NCBI GenBank assembly: GCA_000146465.1
Contig: CP001942.1
Length of the DNA stretch: 64,000 nucleotides
Reading direction: 5' to 3' (one strand)
The translations under genes and the position numbers were made by a program. The notes under the pieces are model-generated. The model made no database searches, was not told where the DNA came from, and was given only the letters and a program-made list of their open reading frames with translations. Below are positions 1,331 to 29,954 of the stretch, one piece after another; positions within the stretch are counted from its first letter, which is position 1; each line of letters starts with the position of its first letter.

Positions 1331-1361
1331 AGTATAAAAGGCGGCTCAGCCCCTTGAGCAG

Positions 1362-2048
1362 ATGACAAGGGGAGTTCTGAGGTTTGTGACTTCTCCGATG
1401 AACTCTGGAAAGACAACTAGTATGCTGCTGAAGGCAAGGCATGCCTCCTCCCTAGGAAGAAAGGTGCTCCTTGTGAAACCCCAGACCGATACAAGATACA
1501 AAGGATCTGTGATAAAATCACGATGTGGGACCGAGATGGAATGCAACCTGTATGTTGACTCTAAGTTTAACTTCAAGAGGGATGTTTCTTACAAGGGCGT
1601 GGACATGGTGTTTATAGATGAGGCACAGTTTCTGAGCTCTAAACAAATAGAGGAACTGAGAGAGGTTGTGGATATCTATGGAGTTTCGGTGTGGTGCTAT
1701 GGGCTTCTTACAGATTTCAAGAAGAATCTTTTTGAAGGATCGAGACGACTGGTTGAACTGTGTGACAAGATGTCTGAGTTTGACATTCTGTGTTACTTCT
1801 GTATGGAGAGCGGGAGATTCCACTTGAAGTACATTGATGGAAAGGCGGATACTTCTGGACCCTCCATCGATGTCTGCGAGGAAGGAAATGAGAAGTTTGT
1901 TTCTGTATGCCATGTTTGTTGGGTGGAGAAGACGACATCTGAGGAAGCTCGGTTTTCGAAACTCTACAATAGAAGTATTTCCGTGGACAAACAATGTGTT
2001 TCATACTCTGGACCCTCTATGAATGAATTTACAAACATGGTACCCTGA
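1362..2048 (+). CDS. Thymidine kinase
   Basis: The P-loop 'SPMNSGKTTSML' is followed by 'VFIDEAQF' and C-terminal Cys pairs ('CYFC', 'CHVC') typical of TK1-type thymidine kinase. The length of about 228 aa fits the family. Confidence 0.8.
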   Translation: MTRGVLRFVTSPMNSGKTTSMLLKARHASSLGRKVLLVKPQTDTRYKGSVIKSRCGTEMECNLYVDSKFNFKRDVSYKGVDMVFIDEAQFLSSKQIEELREVVDIYGVSVWCYGLLTDFKKNLFEGSRRLVELCDKMSEFDILCYFCMESGRFHLKYIDGKADTSGPSIDVCEEGNEKFVSVCHVCWVEKTTSEEARFSKLYNRSISVDKQCVSYSGPSMNEFTNMVP

Positions 2049-2051
2049 ACA

Positions 2052-3059
2052 ATGAAGAAGATCGTTGCTTATGGGGCCACACATTTCATCCTACTTGCTA
2101 TATACACTATGAAGGTAACTCATGGGAGCTGGACTATGTACAATATCCTTACGACTACAACACGCAACAGCACAGTGCACATCCTCCACGCCACATTTCT
2201 GATTTTCCTGATGTGTTCCTTGGCAGGCTTGGTAATAGATAGAGTGTTCAAAAGCCTCCGGCCCGAGGAGATAAGCAACTTCAACGAGTCTCTGCTCTAT
2301 TTCTTGACCGACTTTCTTCTTGTTGTATCTACGTTTGACAGCGATGTCAGTTTCAGGAATGGTCTTCTCTTTGTTATGCTCCTCTGTGTGAAGTCTCTGA
2401 ACTGGCTGCTGGTCTCAAGGATCAAAAGGAATGTCTATCCCTCCTTGTATGGGCTTGCATATGGGATATCCCTATTCTCTGGGCTTATGGTGGTTTTGTT
2501 CACCCTTTCTTGCATTTCTTCCATCACTGGCCAGATCCTCTTTCTTTTCGAATACACTCTTCTTGTGATTGCCTCTATAAAGAACATATGTGTCATGAAC
2601 TTGATTCAGTCTGATGACGATGGTAAGAGATCTCTGTACAACTTCTATATTGACATAGCCTACATGAGTATCATGCTTCTTGTTTATGCTCTATTCATAG
2701 GAATCACCTCCATCAACTACAGGCTTCCCCTGAATCTCTTCCGGTCTGCATTGACGATATTGGATGCCTTGATTTCGAAGGTTAAGATGTTTCTCAGCTA
2801 TCTCAGACTATGCAAGGAGCTTGAGAAGTGTGTAGAAGGGTCGGGAGATGGCTTCTGTGCAATCTGCAGAGATGATATGGAGGTCGGGAAAAAGCTGGCC
2901 TGTGGGCACTGCTTCCACATCGAATGCCTGAAGATGTGGTGTGAGCAGCAGCAGACATGTCCAATATGCAAGTCCAAGCTTGCCTTCGATGTCAAAAAGG
3001 AGAGTTTTGTTGTGGGAAATGAATACATCTCGGGAATTCCTGTGACAATCGACGGCTAA
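2052..3059 (+). CDS. HRD1: Multi-pass membrane RING-H2 E3 ubiquitin ligase, Hrd1/synoviolin-like
   Basis: Several N-terminal TM helices precede a C-terminal RING-H2, 'CAICRDDM...CGHCFHIECLKMWCEQQQTCPICK'. This matches the Hrd1 consensus 'W..RQQTCP.CR'. The ATG lies 3 nt after the TK stop, in the same frame. Confidence 0.6.
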   Translation: MKKIVAYGATHFILLAIYTMKVTHGSWTMYNILTTTTRNSTVHILHATFLIFLMCSLAGLVIDRVFKSLRPEEISNFNESLLYFLTDFLLVVSTFDSDVSFRNGLLFVMLLCVKSLNWLLVSRIKRNVYPSLYGLAYGISLFSGLMVVLFTLSCISSITGQILFLFEYTLLVIASIKNICVMNLIQSDDDGKRSLYNFYIDIAYMSIMLLVYALFIGITSINYRLPLNLFRSALTILDALISKVKMFLSYLRLCKELEKCVEGSGDGFCAICRDDMEVGKKLACGHCFHIECLKMWCEQQQTCPICKSKLAFDVKKESFVVGNEYISGIPVTIDG

Positions 3060-3077
3060 AAATAACAATAAAGGATT

Positions 3078-3794
3078 TTATTCTTTGGAATCTAAGGTCT
3101 TTGGCAAATTCTTTATCTCCTTGACTTTTTCTATGGTTTCACTGCCTATCTTGACCAGATGGACTCCAGAGCGTGAATCTTGAGACTTAGTCACATGATA
3201 CTTGTGCCGAACTACAACTCCGTTTCTTTCTCCCTGTATGTTAATCACTGCCTCCTTCATTCCAGAGGACAGCCTGTATAACCCAGCCTTCTTTGCTGCA
3301 GAATAGGGGAATTTGGAGGGATACACACGCCTCTCTCCAAATTCATTTGAAATCTCTTCTCCTTCGTCATTGACTTCGATGAAGTTTATCTTTGTGGTGT
3401 AGTAGTAGGACGCCTTTTTGCTCATCACTCGGAACTTATCACTCAAGTCGATGTGCTTCCTGTCCTCTTTGAACACATCCTTGTACTTCTCCAGAATCTC
3501 TTTCCATTTCCCATGCCCAAACTCCTTGATTCCTTTGATCAGTGCTTCCGACTCCTCGGGTGTCCAAGGTTTAGGTTTTCTCCTTGGATTTTTAGTATAG
3601 GTCCTTACAAAAAGGTTTTCACTAACATGCTTTTTTCTTGGAACTTTGCTGTAAATGTGCAGTTTGATTTTCGAAGATGGTCTACTGCATTCTCCGCCCT
3701 CCATTATGAGGGGCTGCAGTTCTCGGCAAATTCCATATGGATTTCGCCTGCTTAATTGCTTTACTGCTATTCTGTGGAGAATGGCTCTTTTCAT
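3078..3794 (-). CDS. Myb/SANT-domain DNA-binding protein, tandem paralogue A
   Basis: It carries a single Myb-like repeat, 'KPWTPEESEALIKGIKEFGHGKWKEILEKY'. The Myb region is clearly paralogous to that of the upstream ORF. Confidence 0.5.
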   Translation of the reverse strand: MKRAILHRIAVKQLSRRNPYGICRELQPLIMEGGECSRPSSKIKLHIYSKVPRKKHVSENLFVRTYTKNPRRKPKPWTPEESEALIKGIKEFGHGKWKEILEKYKDVFKEDRKHIDLSDKFRVMSKKASYYYTTKINFIEVNDEGEEISNEFGERRVYPSKFPYSAAKKAGLYRLSSGMKEAVINIQGERNGVVVRHKYHVTKSQDSRSGVHLVKIGSETIEKVKEIKNLPKTLDSKE

Positions 3795-3797
3795 GCC

Positions 3798-4370
3798 CTA
3801 TGGATCCATGCAGATTTCGTACGGATGCTTTCTTAGATGGTTTTTTATGGCATGTTTCCACTCATACTCCAGCACCTTATCTTCCATGTAGACTGTCGAG
3901 ATAGGATTCACTTCCACAAGCCCATCATCCAGAGAGACCTTGTACTGGTGCATCTTACTAACAGAATCGAAATGTGTGCCCACAAAGATGTCTTCCCTCT
4001 CCAGATACTCTTTTCTATTCTTCTCAACCATCCTTTTCAGCATCGGGAGAGGATCAACACAAAAGAAGTATACAATCCTTCCATTTCTGTAGATTGGCAT
4101 TCCATACATGTTGACCACAATTGCATGCTTCATATCAAACTCCCTTAAACACCTATCCTGAATGTTTTCGTAGTACTGTCTTTTTATCTCTCGTTCGTCC
4201 TTATCCGATCCAAGATATCTTCCATACTTCTCTAGTATCATAGCCCAGTTTGTGCCAAAGCAGAGTATACCGGTGTCCAGGGCGTCCAACTCGGAGTCTT
4301 TCCACTGTGGAAGAACTTTTTTTTTTGGAATGGTGTGGAAATGAGCATTCCTTTTGGAACTGTTTTCCAT
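3798..4370 (-). CDS. Myb/SANT-domain DNA-binding protein, tandem paralogue B
   Basis: The Myb-like repeat is 'WKDSELDALDTGILCFGTNWAMILEKY'. The listed ORF was trimmed to the Met at 4368-4370 because its N-terminal 50 aa ('MTGFEPV...') are an antisense read-through of the tRNA-Ser gene. Confidence 0.5.
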   Translation of the reverse strand: MENSSKRNAHFHTIPKKKVLPQWKDSELDALDTGILCFGTNWAMILEKYGRYLGSDKDEREIKRQYYENIQDRCLREFDMKHAIVVNMYGMPIYRNGRIVYFFCVDPLPMLKRMVEKNRKEYLEREDIFVGTHFDSVSKMHQYKVSLDDGLVEVNPISTVYMEDKVLEYEWKHAIKNHLRKHPYEICMDP

Positions 4371-4443
4371 GTATGCTGGGTGAAGAAGGATTTTAAAGTC
4401 TTGAAGTGATGTGGTACCTTGCTTGTGTGCAAAGGACACTTTA

Positions 4444-4525
4444 GAAGGTGTGGCCGAGTGGTTATGGCGTTGGTCTAGAAAACCAATGGGCACCGCCCTC
4501 ACAGGTTCGAATCCTGTCACCTTCG
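4444..4525 (+). tRNA. tRNA-Ser (anticodon AGA)
   Basis: A cloverleaf was folded by hand. The acceptor stem is GAAGGTG/CACCTTC and the D-arm is GCC..GGC. The anticodon stem is TTGGT/ACCAA with loop CTAGAAA, giving anticodon AGA. A long variable arm typical of Ser/Leu is present, followed by T-arm ACAGG-TTCGAAT-CCTGT and discriminator G. A T6 run follows directly. Confidence 0.85.
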
Positions 4526-4532
4526 CTTTTTT
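4526..4532 (+). terminator. Pol III-type oligo(T) terminator after tRNA-Ser
   Basis: The sequence 'CTTTTTTG' sits immediately 3' of the discriminator base. Confidence 0.4.
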
Positions 4533-4545
4533 GTTGCAAATCCCT

Positions 4546-5862
4546 ATGAAATCCCAGTGTCTTCAGCCCATGAACTGCCAAATATGCACAGGAGCCATGG
4601 ACATCTTTGCAACATACACCTGTGGCCACCAGCTATGCATGACATGCTCTGCAAGACTTGTGTTTCTATATATGCAACCAAACTGTCCTTTGTGCAGAAG
4701 GCCTTCCAAGTCTGTTGTTTTTTCATCACTCCTAACAACTGGAAAGTCTTCCAAACGGCCATGGAAGGGCAGGAAGGTTCCGGTAGATGTCTTCTACGAA
4801 GGAGACTATGCGAGAGAGAAGATGGAGGACCTTCTGTCCAACAAGTGCCAAAAGTGCTACGCCAAGCTTGGAACTTTGATGGAGCTCAAGAAACACTACA
4901 CACAGCATGGACTTGTTCTTTGCTTTGAATGCATCAAAAACAGAAAGGACTTCTGGAATGAAATCAAACTCTATAGAAGTGACACAATCCGAGACCACAA
5001 GAATGGAAGTCTTCGGGAAGAAGGATTTGAAGGACATGTGTTCTGCATTCATTGTAAAATCTATCTATTTGATTCCGACGACGCAAAGAGACACTGTAAC
5101 CTCAAGCACGAGCTGTGCCATGTTTGTGACATGACAGGAACAAAATATCAGTACTATAATGGCTTTAAGGACTTGGAAACACACTACAAAAGTGCCCATT
5201 ACTGCTGCAGCTTCCAGACATGCCAGACAAACAAGTGCTATGTATTTCCCTATCAAACAGAGCTTTTCGAGCATCTCACCAGGTTCCATGGAGTGGATAT
5301 CAGACTGCTGGAGATTCCAATGGCTGGGAAATGCAATGTTCCTGTGATGAACCCGTTCAAGAGGAGACGGCAACTTCCCCAGGTGAGTGTGGTAGATCCA
5401 AGTGGAAGAGAAGTCCGATCTCAGCTCCCTCCAGGCCCCAATGTATCTCAAAGGATGGATACTTCCAATACTGGGTCTGGGCTTCCTGGATACTTGGATA
5501 GAGCCATTTTAGAGGAAGAAAGAAGAAAACAGCAGAGGCGTAGAATGGCTATAGACCGCATATGCAAGGGGGCTGCGGATGAGGTAGAGGAAATTGTAAA
5601 CGGGTTTCTAGAGGGCTCCATGGATGTCAAGGAAGCATTCAACAAAGTGTCGGGAACAGTTGGTGATGCATTAGCACTTAAACTATTTGAGTCGGGGCAC
5701 TTTGGGCCTAAACAGAGTGTGGTAGAGGGTAGCATAAAGGCCTTGAGGAAGGAAGTCATGTTTCCAAAGTTCACCTCGGAGGAGCCTACAAGATATAAAG
5801 AGCCCGAGAAGAAAAAGAACCCTGGATTCAGAGTCATAGATCTACACCAAAGAAAGCAATAA
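4546..5862 (+). CDS. RING + multiple C2H2 zinc-finger E3 ligase, ZNF598/Hel2-like
   Basis: An N-terminal RING ('CQICTGAMD...CGHQLCMTCSARL...CPLCR') is followed by spaced C..C/H..H pairs, for example 'CQKCYAKLGTLMELKKHYTQH' and 'HCNLKHELCHVC'. This is the ZNF598/Hel2 architecture. The start was moved to the first Met downstream of the tRNA. Confidence 0.55.
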   Translation: MKSQCLQPMNCQICTGAMDIFATYTCGHQLCMTCSARLVFLYMQPNCPLCRRPSKSVVFSSLLTTGKSSKRPWKGRKVPVDVFYEGDYAREKMEDLLSNKCQKCYAKLGTLMELKKHYTQHGLVLCFECIKNRKDFWNEIKLYRSDTIRDHKNGSLREEGFEGHVFCIHCKIYLFDSDDAKRHCNLKHELCHVCDMTGTKYQYYNGFKDLETHYKSAHYCCSFQTCQTNKCYVFPYQTELFEHLTRFHGVDIRLLEIPMAGKCNVPVMNPFKRRRQLPQVSVVDPSGREVRSQLPPGPNVSQRMDTSNTGSGLPGYLDRAILEEERRKQQRRRMAIDRICKGAADEVEEIVNGFLEGSMDVKEAFNKVSGTVGDALALKLFESGHFGPKQSVVEGSIKALRKEVMFPKFTSEEPTRYKEPEKKKNPGFRVIDLHQRKQ

Positions 5863-28526: not shown

Positions 28527-29102
28527 CTAGTCTTCGGACTCCATTTCCAATGCTATTTCCCTGGCCTGAGGGTCTGAGCTCCTGAGCTTCTCATCTTCTT
28601 CCCTAGCTATTTTAATAACCTCCTTGGAATATTCTTCAGGGTTGTCCCTGTGCATGACAGAAGCATCTACATTTGCTGGAGACGATGTGTTGGGGGCATT
28701 GAGGATCACAATCACAGAAAGAAGAATCGTTCTGATGTTTTGGACAGGTGCCCATTTGTCTTTCGAGTCTCCATACCCGGTTGGATCGAGAATGTCTTCT
28801 TCGAGAATTGATATGCACATTCTTCCATCCTCATAGATGTTTGGATGAAACATCTTCGAAACAAACTTAAGCGTTGGAGGCTGAAGGGGATAGCAGTCTG
28901 GAAATTCCATGACAGCCTTCAGTATCCTCCCTGCATATAAGGAATCTCCACCGAGGGTGAAGTAGATATCCCAAACCTTGTAGTTTCTGTTTTCCCTAGG
29001 CCCTCTAGGACATGCTCTGAAGAGCTTTCTTTCATCTCCTGTAGAGTCTTTTAGCATATCCTCTTCCTTCGATAGCCTTCTGCGGGCCCCAGATGACAAC
29101 AT
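28527..29102 (-). CDS. UBC7: Ubiquitin-conjugating enzyme E2, UBC7/UBE2G-like
   Basis: The UBC core 'FHPNIYEDGRMCISIL' is followed by the acidic-loop insertion 'EEDILDPTGYGDSKDKWAPVQNIRTILLSV' characteristic of UBC7/Cdc34-type E2s. The start was trimmed to 'MLSSGARRRL'. Confidence 0.7.
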   Translation of the reverse strand: MLSSGARRRLSKEEDMLKDSTGDERKLFRACPRGPRENRNYKVWDIYFTLGGDSLYAGRILKAVMEFPDCYPLQPPTLKFVSKMFHPNIYEDGRMCISILEEDILDPTGYGDSKDKWAPVQNIRTILLSVIVILNAPNTSSPANVDASVMHRDNPEEYSKEVIKIAREEDEKLRSSDPQAREIALEMESED

Positions 29103-29156
29103 TTGCAGGGGTTGTGTATTTATTTTTATATCCTCTAGCCTGGGCATACAGATTCC

Positions 29157-29954
29157 TTAAGACCTGTTATTATCTGCCACAAAATACAGGATCTGTGCAC
29201 TGACTAGCTTGTAGAAGGGATGTCCAGGAGTAAAGTCACAGAAAAGCGAAATCCCTGAACAAATCCACTCTGTAGAGGAAAACGACAGTGAATATGCCAC
29301 AAAGGATATCCAATACGATTTTTCGACGGGAACCAGCGGCGAGCAGCATATGAGGGCCTTTGTGAAGCACGGCAGCTTTCCCATAAGCAACGGCGTCCGG
29401 AAGTCGATTCGAAATTCTGGAAGCACCATCTTCCTGCATCTCACAATTGCCCTGTATTCGTTAGCCCTGTCTGTAAATGAGGCTTCTCTTAAGAGCCTTG
29501 CAACCTTCTTGTATGCTTGGCCGTAGTCTTCGCTTTCTATTGGAGGAGGAGACAGATGGTATATATTGAAAAAATGGAAGACTGCAAGGCACATGCTCAC
29601 TGTGCGATTGTTTAGTGAGTACAGCGAAAGCAACATTCCCATGGATTCCATAATCCCAGCTATTTCTAGGTTTCCCCTGTGGAACTTGTCTATGCAAAGA
29701 TTGCTTACAGAAACATATGTTGCAGCTACTGTAAATCCATAGCACAGGAAGTAGATGTTTGGAAACAGCAGAGAAAGAATAAACAAGGAGTTCGATATGT
29801 ACATCTTTCTTTTTGTGCCTGGGACAAGAAGTGCAACAAGAGAGGAAGGAATGGACAAAGCAAATAGATATGGGCCTGGAAAATGGCTTGCTGCCAGAAA
29901 AAGAGGTATAGCATAAAGCACAGCCTGCCTTCTTAGACTTCCTGGATTTTCCAT
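29157..29954 (-). CDS. Hypothetical multi-pass membrane protein
   Basis: The 265-aa ORF has 5-6 hydrophobic segments and no confident family. Confidence 0.4.
   Translation of the reverse strand: MENPGSLRRQAVLYAIPLFLAASHFPGPYLFALSIPSSLVALLVPGTKRKMYISNSLFILSLLFPNIYFLCYGFTVAATYVSVSNLCIDKFHRGNLEIAGIMESMGMLLSLYSLNNRTVSMCLAVFHFFNIYHLSPPPIESEDYGQAYKKVARLLREASFTDRANEYRAIVRCRKMVLPEFRIDFRTPLLMGKLPCFTKALICCSPLVPVEKSYWISFVAYSLSFSSTEWICSGISLFCDFTPGHPFYKLVSAQILYFVADNNRS

Follow-up and report, generated by a model that had tools for sequence, protein, structure and literature searches.

In the 64,000 nucleotides (nt) of Encephalitozoon intestinalis chromosome I analysed here (contig CP001942.1 of assembly GCA_000146465.1; hereafter the window), two paralogous genes with one Myb-like repeat each, A and B, follow one another on the minus strand in a single reading frame interrupted by one TAG codon. 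We conclude that A and B are very probably two separate, independently expressed genes derived from an old tandem duplication, and that their in-frame layout is fortuitous: in so compact a genome, the two came to share a frame across the TAG by accident.

The locus was first described from the sequence of the window alone (the original prediction), and its coordinates and sequence were given correctly: TAG, GGC and ATG do stand in one frame. The minus strand reads '...CAT CCG TAC GAA ATC TGC ATG GAT CCA TAG GGC ATG AAA AGA GCC...', so that the stop of A (3800..3798) is followed by a single GGC (Gly) codon and by ATG 3794..3792, from which an open reading frame (ORF) runs to TAA 3080..3078. The distance between the starts of the two ORFs confirms the common frame (4370-3794 = 576 = 192x3). 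Both genes match the annotation of E. intestinalis ATCC 50506 at 100%: A is Eint_010660 (190 amino acids, aa) and B is Eint_010650, annotated with 208 aa and starting at what had been Met31 of the ORF in the original prediction. Their E. cuniculi counterparts are ECU01_0770 for A and ECU01_0760 for B. Our literature search found no mention of Eint_010650/60 or ECU01_0760/70 in main texts. The features of the locus are the following (window positions; TSS, transcription start site).

3798..4370, minus strand: gene A (Eint_010660), 190 aa plus TAG; divergent paralogue; start MENS..., as in E. cuniculi ECU01_0770 (MENR...)
3798..3800, minus strand: TAG stop of A, genuine; about 12-17 codons ahead of the stop in three other A-bearing lineages
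3705..3797, minus strand: A-B spacer, 93 nt; holds the fortuitous ATG 3794..3792
3078..3704, minus strand: gene B (Eint_010650), 208 aa plus TAA; conserved start MEGGECSRPSSKIKLH
3710..3713, minus strand: CCCC motif of B, 6-9 nt 5' of the conserved ATG; role as in PMC2803860
4378..4380, minus strand: CCC motif of A, 8-10 nt 5' of A's ATG; putative core promoter or TSS signal, as in PMC2803860
4444..4526, plus strand: tRNA-Ser(AGA), upstream boundary of the A/B block

Orthologous loci and the A-B junction

Using B or the neighbouring HRD1-like gene, we fetched the corresponding loci of nine genomes beyond E. intestinalis: E. cuniculi (3 strains), E. hellem (3), E. romaleae, Ordospora colligata, O. 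pajunii, together with four relatives (L012-L015) whose assemblies derive from public runs. With six-frame translations and a junction analysis, the linker was measured from A's conserved '...HPYDI' to B's conserved Met.

Gene order is fully conserved: trehalose-P synthase, a 219-aa gene, a ZNF598-like RING gene and tRNA-Ser are followed by A (where it exists), B, HRD1 and TK. The antisense tRNA-Ser motif was found at every locus and adjoins A, or B where A is absent (10/10 genomes). Orthologues of B are 189-212 aa long in the nine other genomes. E. hellem, E. romaleae, L015 and the two Ordospora species lack A; B is there on its own, 100-213 nt from the tRNA. The five A-bearing genomes have the following junctions.

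E. intestinalis: linker 108 nt; A stop TAG at linker codon 5; B in the same frame
E. cuniculi: linker 107 nt; A stop TGA at codon 20; B in a different frame
L012: linker 108 nt; no stop, 418-aa A-linker-B ORF; B in the same frame
L013: linker 120 nt; A stop TAG at codon 22, then one codon and ATG; B in the same frame
L014: linker 76 nt; A stop TGA at codon 17; B in a different frame

The relatives hold two separately conserved genes with independent starts, the pattern by which the original prediction would tell a plain tandem pair from one gene. One two-repeat Myb gene broken by a nonsense mutation, which it had also considered, does not fit the loci, because B stands alone in five genomes, the frames differ in E. 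cuniculi and L014, and the linker is not conserved. Nor is there a single R2R3-like Myb gene with adjacent repeats in one conserved ORF: two genes are present in 4/5 A-bearing genomes, and the Myb repeats of A and B are separated by a whole domain and the linker.

The start of gene B

The Met of the pattern M-x(3-8)-SS[KR]I[KR]LH aligns in all ten genomes and corresponds to ATG 3704..3702 in E. intestinalis. Immediately upstream of it, E. cuniculi and E. hellem carry an in-frame TAA; in E. romaleae a TAG is found seven codons upstream. A CCC(C) run lies a few nt 5' of the aligned ATG in 10/10 genomes, L012 included. Such CCC motifs mark the starts of E. cuniculi genes, where 5' untranslated regions are shorter than 7 nt (Peyretaillade et al. 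2009, PMC2803860); they served to correct 364 start codons, with GGG as a rare alternative, and the supplement of that study gives ECU01_0760 ('actaagatttgaagcccttggtaa') and ECU01_0770 an upstream signal of their own each (PMC2803860).

B almost certainly starts at ATG 3704, 30 codons after the first ATG. The functional spacer is therefore 93 nt and not 3 nt, the shorter figure being an artefact of choosing the first ATG. The N-terminal peptide of the 208-aa B would be MEGGECSRPSSK, and translation of 3705..3797, in a 238-aa form or by read-through, would yield the peptides ELQPLIMEGGECSR and NPYGICR.

E. intestinalis, E. cuniculi and E. hellem share a short motif, CCA(T)ATGGA(A/C)T, some 25-40 nt before the ATG of B (window 3728..3745, minus strand; L001:3963..3980; L004:3967..3982). 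It may be a promoter element of B. When translated, it produces a spurious 'NPYGIC' likeness to A's C-terminal 'HPYEIC'. A second BLASTP match pairs A's C-terminal 'AIKNHLRKHPYEICMD' with the linker's 'AVKQLSRRNPYGICRE' (expectation value, E, 0.017). We rejected a small internal duplication as its source: the match is probably coincidental, since the linker stretch overlaps the CCA[T]ATGGA motif, which also occurs in the non-coding sequence upstream of B in E. cuniculi and E. hellem.

The in-frame layout and its alternatives

The linker bears no mark of a coding sequence kept for its product. Between E. intestinalis and L012 its protein identity is 2/36, with 52% and 59% in the flanking A and B; its length and the position of the stop both vary (codon 5, 17, 20, 22, or none); and the spacer region aligns in the relatives with the poorly conserved 3' tail of A and the promoter region of B. 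A shuffled 93-nt spacer is stop-free in frame in 17% of cases which, multiplied by 1/3 for the frame, gives about 6% per same-strand pair. In the window, open stretches of 150 codons or more form three pairs divided by one in-frame stop, and two of these pairs consist of unrelated genes.

1338..3056 or, as the two genes, 1362..3059, plus strand: TK/HRD1 pair, same layout of stop, one codon and ATG (2046..2054)
28527..29954, minus strand: 265-aa membrane protein and 206-aa UBC-type E2, in frame, with one stop and 9 nt between them

In the former pair, the TK stop ends at 2048 and the ATG of the HRD1-like E3 ligase is at 2052; the E. cuniculi TK/HRD1 spacer measures 101 nt. The in-frame single-stop layout is not beyond chance, whereas the paralogy of A and B is far beyond it.

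Some observations weigh against two genes with a fortuitous frame and a start of B at ATG 3704. A and B share their frame in 3/5 A-bearing genomes (E. intestinalis, L012, L013), and L012 is without any stop, its A-B ORF extending over 418 aa (L012:4386..5642, minus strand, with a 36-codon linker, on a 16.8-kb contig of Logan assembly SRR21633403). Moreover, GGG stands directly upstream of ATG 3794, which leaves room for a 238-aa isoform of B, and one automatic gene caller picked this very ATG (238 aa).

The fused L012 product was found on a single contig only, with B's own ATG and CCC kept inside the ORF. In L013, which belongs to a different clade, an independent 'stop + one codon + ATG' junction is in frame (L013:4785..4793, minus strand); its post-stop ATG is not the conserved start of B, which comes 17 codons further, at 4736.

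The fused ORF raises the question of direction. An ancestral two-module gene (Myb-MC1-Myb-MC1), such as that of L012, could have been split by a nonsense mutation, with an internal start rescuing B. Such gene fission would account for the continuous 418-aa ORF and for the frame kept by linkers of 108, 108 and 120 nt in three lineages, but we consider it improbable: the single-module B type is widespread (Ordospora, Hamiltosporidium and dozens of representatives of 180-250 aa), B's ATG and CCC motif are kept in every genome, even in L012, and the stops of E. cuniculi, L013 and L014 fall at similar linker codons, 17-22. These similar stop positions suggest that an ancestral stop was lost in L012, the fusion being derived.

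Programmed read-through of the TAG, giving some A-B fusion in E. intestinalis and L013 with the in-frame layout under selection, is less probable still, although both species have one stop followed by an open in-frame linker and the natural L012 fusion shows that a fused product is tolerated. The position of the stop is not conserved (codon 5 vs codon 22), the 2/36 linker identity leaves no conservation at the protein level, E. cuniculi and L014 do not keep the frame, and the same layout recurs in the unrelated gene pairs of the window. A conserved stop with a protein-conserved in-frame extension was thus not found, the frame being broken in 2/5 genomes, and the read-through candidate of the original prediction is left unsupported. 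The TAG-GGC-ATG context is not known to fit any read-through motif.

Finally, a sequencing or assembly error within one continuous gene, for which the in-frame layout and nothing more can be cited, is so unlikely as to be negligible, because the 1293-bp region (likewise 3060..4560) does not differ between the window, GCA_051312775.1 and the Logan assembly of run ERR13302946; the exact 190-aa A product is encoded on six contigs.

Paralogy, age and selection

BLASTP aligns A and B over the Myb only (17/36 identities, E 3e-5). Comparison of profiles by hhalign, built from five A and ten B orthologues, extends the match to the Myb and the following domain (97.8%, E 8.5e-13, 143 columns). Judged by these alignments, the two genes are paralogous over their full length.

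Purifying selection acts on A: in the comparison of E. intestinalis with E. cuniculi, the proportion of nonsynonymous differences (pN) is 0.19 vs 0.74 for synonymous ones (pS), on which grounds we regard A as functional. Because of saturation at synonymous sites (pS 0.7-0.8), a proper ratio of substitution rates (dN/dS) was rejected and nothing beyond the contrast of pN with pS can be used.

A neighbour-joining tree of HRD1, RING and TK (888 columns, bootstraps 82-100) gives ((((E. hellem, E. romaleae), E. intestinalis), E. cuniculi), L012), a second clade (L013, (L014, L015)), and Ordospora. A occurs in five lineages across two clades. On this tree A predates the split of the first two clades and was lost at least twice, in the ancestor of E. 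hellem and E. romaleae and in L015. We infer these losses from the tree and not from remnants, because, when the stretches between tRNA and B in E. hellem, E. romaleae, L015 and Ordospora are aligned locally with the A-bearing regions, the scores stay within the shuffled range, and no relics of A are detectable in them. The original prediction of tandem paralogues with one Myb-like repeat each holds, and the paralogy extends over the whole length; the duplication is not recent, as had been proposed, given the five lineages in two clades, the two or more losses and the saturated synonymous sites.

Domains of A and B

Each gene combines a Myb-like repeat with a C-terminal alpha/beta domain. Secondary structure was taken from AlphaFold2 (AF2) models.

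3426..3572, minus strand: TRF-like (telobox-type) Myb of B, aa 45-93; basic N-terminal arm 'KNPRRKPKPW'; helix 3 'IDLSDKFRVMSKK'
3129..3392, minus strand: MC1-like alpha/beta domain of B, aa ~105-192; predicted beta-beta-alpha-beta-beta-beta (AF2 topology)
4167..4310, minus strand: degenerate Myb/SANT repeat of A, aa 21-68; helix 3 'EIKRQYYENI' replaces the telobox
3891..4130, minus strand: C-terminal alpha/beta domain of A, aa ~81-160; homologue of the MC1-like domain in B by hhalign alignment, secondary structure from low-confidence AF2

B passes the Pfam threshold for Myb_DNA-binding PF00249 (33.1 bits vs a cut-off of 24.4), and 36/36 family members match PF00249 at the reporting threshold of E<=1. 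Telomeric Mybs (TRF1, TRF2, TBP1, Tbf1, Terfa, S. pombe trf1) make up 23 of the 24 best PDB matches of B, with E down to 7e-8, and the E. hellem orthologue of B already bears the name 'telomere repeat binding factor-like DNA-binding domain-containing protein'. The telobox motif in helix 3 is about VDLKDKWRT. B has IDLSDKFRV and L014 VDLKDKYRQ at this place: D-L-x-D-K-x-R is kept, with Phe or Tyr for the telobox Trp.

Encephalitozoon telomeres consist of TTAGG repeats, and the table of their proteins lists TERT, Stn1, Ten1, Pot1 and Tpz1, a duplex binder not being among them (PMC10158259). With its TRF-like Myb, B is a reasonable candidate for a binder of duplex TTAGG telomeres.

An exhaustive profile search with the B family returned 81 representatives at E<=1e-10, many of them of 180-250 aa and matching over both the Myb and the C-terminal domain. 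Hamiltosporidium is the sole named example; with it and the many other representatives, the family therefore reaches well past Encephalitozoon and Ordospora. The B profile also matches proteins in which 4-5 TRF-like Myb repeats stand in tandem and the MC1-like domain is missing (P0027, P0028, P0029, P0032, P0041, P0079).

A of E. intestinalis stays under the Pfam thresholds (SANT_DAMP1_like 16.9 bits, cut-off 29.1; Myb_DNA-bind_7 13.3 bits). Weak PF00249 matches are present in 2/5 A orthologues, and the homology with B's Myb is shown by hhalign. In most species A has no basic arm before its Myb, and its helix 3 reads 'KRQYY' vs 'SDKFR' in B. A is unlikely to keep the DNA specificity predicted for B, because the basic arm and the telobox helix residues are lost.

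The C-terminal domain of B is probably related to MC1. A profile of 36 members, run with hmmsearch against PDB sequences, matched archaeal MC1 alone (1t23/2khl/2nbj) at E 0.005, the next hit having E 1.7. With hhalign the domain aligns to MC1 over 61 columns (95.3%, E 2e-8); of the MC1 sequence used, residues 13-63 were confirmed against the PDB alignment. Against the relationship stands the score of the family consensus with Pfam MC1 (PF05854), which at 17.2 bits (E 0.006) is under the cut-off of 23, with a Pfam MC1 match for 1/36 family members (E 0.025). The AF2 models are poor as well (predicted local distance difference test, pLDDT, 49 and 62), and structure searches returned nothing significant and did not confirm the MC1 match; their top ten in BFVD include two giant-virus 'MC1 domain' proteins (E 0.013 and 0.075). 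The Arg of MC1 'QPRQAA', critical for bending, is not kept: it aligns with the Tyr/His of 'FPY/HxAA' in the B family. A mimivirus preprint reports that some viral MC1 homologues are also without the bending-critical Arg. Our literature search found no paper linking MC1 and microsporidia.

Proposed history and function

We propose the following history for the locus. The ancestral form would have been of the B type, a Myb + MC1-like gene that was duplicated in tandem long ago, each copy having its own start codon behind the microsporidian CCC promoter/TSS motif. The tail of A would first have ended some 17-22 codons beyond HPYDI, where it still ends in E. cuniculi, L013 and L014, and, being weakly constrained at the C-terminus, it would have let the stop codon wander. 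In E. intestinalis an earlier TAG would have arisen in this tail, after which the old stop decayed. The remaining 93 nt to the true ATG of B are by chance a multiple of three and stop-free, with a chance ATG just after the TAG, and these properties create the illusion of a 3-nt spacer or of a broken gene. In L012, the stop would have been lost with no replacement, fusing the two genes.

As to function, the TRF-like Myb of B would bind duplex DNA, with the TTAGG telomere repeat as its most likely target, and the MC1-like domain might bend or compact that DNA. A appears dispensable and would probably be a modulating partner or a sub-functionalised copy. A bolder version can be put forward only tentatively, and we find it rather doubtful: B would be the missing microsporidian duplex-telomere (TTAGG) factor, with a telobox Myb and an MC1-type bending domain; A would be its lineage-specific heterodimer partner; the L012 fusion would be a 'Rosetta-stone' sign of their association; and low-level read-through of the TAG could make the fusion.

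Altogether, the single-stop frame is an ordinary finding: in a compact microsporidian genome, genes on the same strand can look like a single frame. The locus also shows an annotation trap known from these genomes, where taking the first ATG after a stop leads to a wrong start (238 aa vs 208 aa). The locus is a compact example of gene-boundary drift with spacers of about 100 nt: within some ten close genomes, one gene pair went through duplication, repeated loss, stop-codon wandering and one stop-loss fusion. In addition, a small microsporidian family carries a Myb of the telomere type together with what is probably an MC1-like architectural domain. The residual interest is in the stop-loss fusion of L012 and in this telobox-Myb + MC1-like architecture.

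Neighbouring genes

On the tRNA side of A, the mechanical ORFs 3798..4520 (minus strand) and 4411..5862 (plus strand) run through tRNA-Ser in both orientations, which lengthens A to 240 aa and gives the ZNF598-like RING gene 483 aa. In fact A starts at ATG 4370 and the RING gene at an internal Met (430 aa in L008).

A PRK (uridine-kinase-like) gene lies between a 102-aa gene and thioredoxin in E. hellem, E. romaleae, Ordospora and L012-L015. At the same position it is uncalled in the three E. cuniculi strains, perhaps by lineage-specific loss (L001:6392..7143 compared with L004:6871..7803 and L010:1792..2754).

Comparison with known systems

Like the telobox or TRF-like single-Myb proteins that bind duplex telomeres (human TRF1/TRF2, plant TBP1/NgTRF1, yeast Tbf1, S. 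pombe Taz1/Teb1), B contains a single Myb repeat with a basic arm ahead of helix 1 and a helix 3 of telobox-like sequence, and its nearest solved structures are nearly all telomeric Mybs (E 7e-8 to 1e-4). Unlike in TRF-type proteins, the Myb of B is not C-terminal: it is followed by the MC1-like domain, with no TRFH or other known dimerisation domain, in a protein of only ~200 aa whose telobox Trp is replaced by Phe or Tyr. A departs further from them, being without the basic arm and the telobox residues.

With MC1 (Methanosarcina; PF05854) and the giant-virus MC1-like proteins (mimivirus gp275), the ~90-aa domain of the B family has in common the 'P-x-x-A-A-x-K-x-A' helix, and its predicted strand order fits the five strands and one helix of MC1. 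It differs from MC1 by a 7-residue insertion in the first hairpin, and it is joined to a Myb in a cellular eukaryote, whereas the literature searched has MC1 only in archaea and giant viruses.

Multi-repeat Mybs of the R2R3 type likewise hold two Myb-like repeats in one frame. Those of A and B, however, are ~230 residues apart and not adjacent; they do not form one DNA-binding unit, and each stands in a separate gene with an MC1-like domain of its own.

A further parallel is found in the compact gene pairs of microsporidia, with their minimal spacers and their overlapping and run-through transcription. A and B are likewise on the same strand, with a very short spacer and the promoter signal of B in the tail region of A, and transcription overrun has been documented in E. 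cuniculi (PMC2803860). The A/B locus looks typical of such pairs, except that both of its genes are paralogues.

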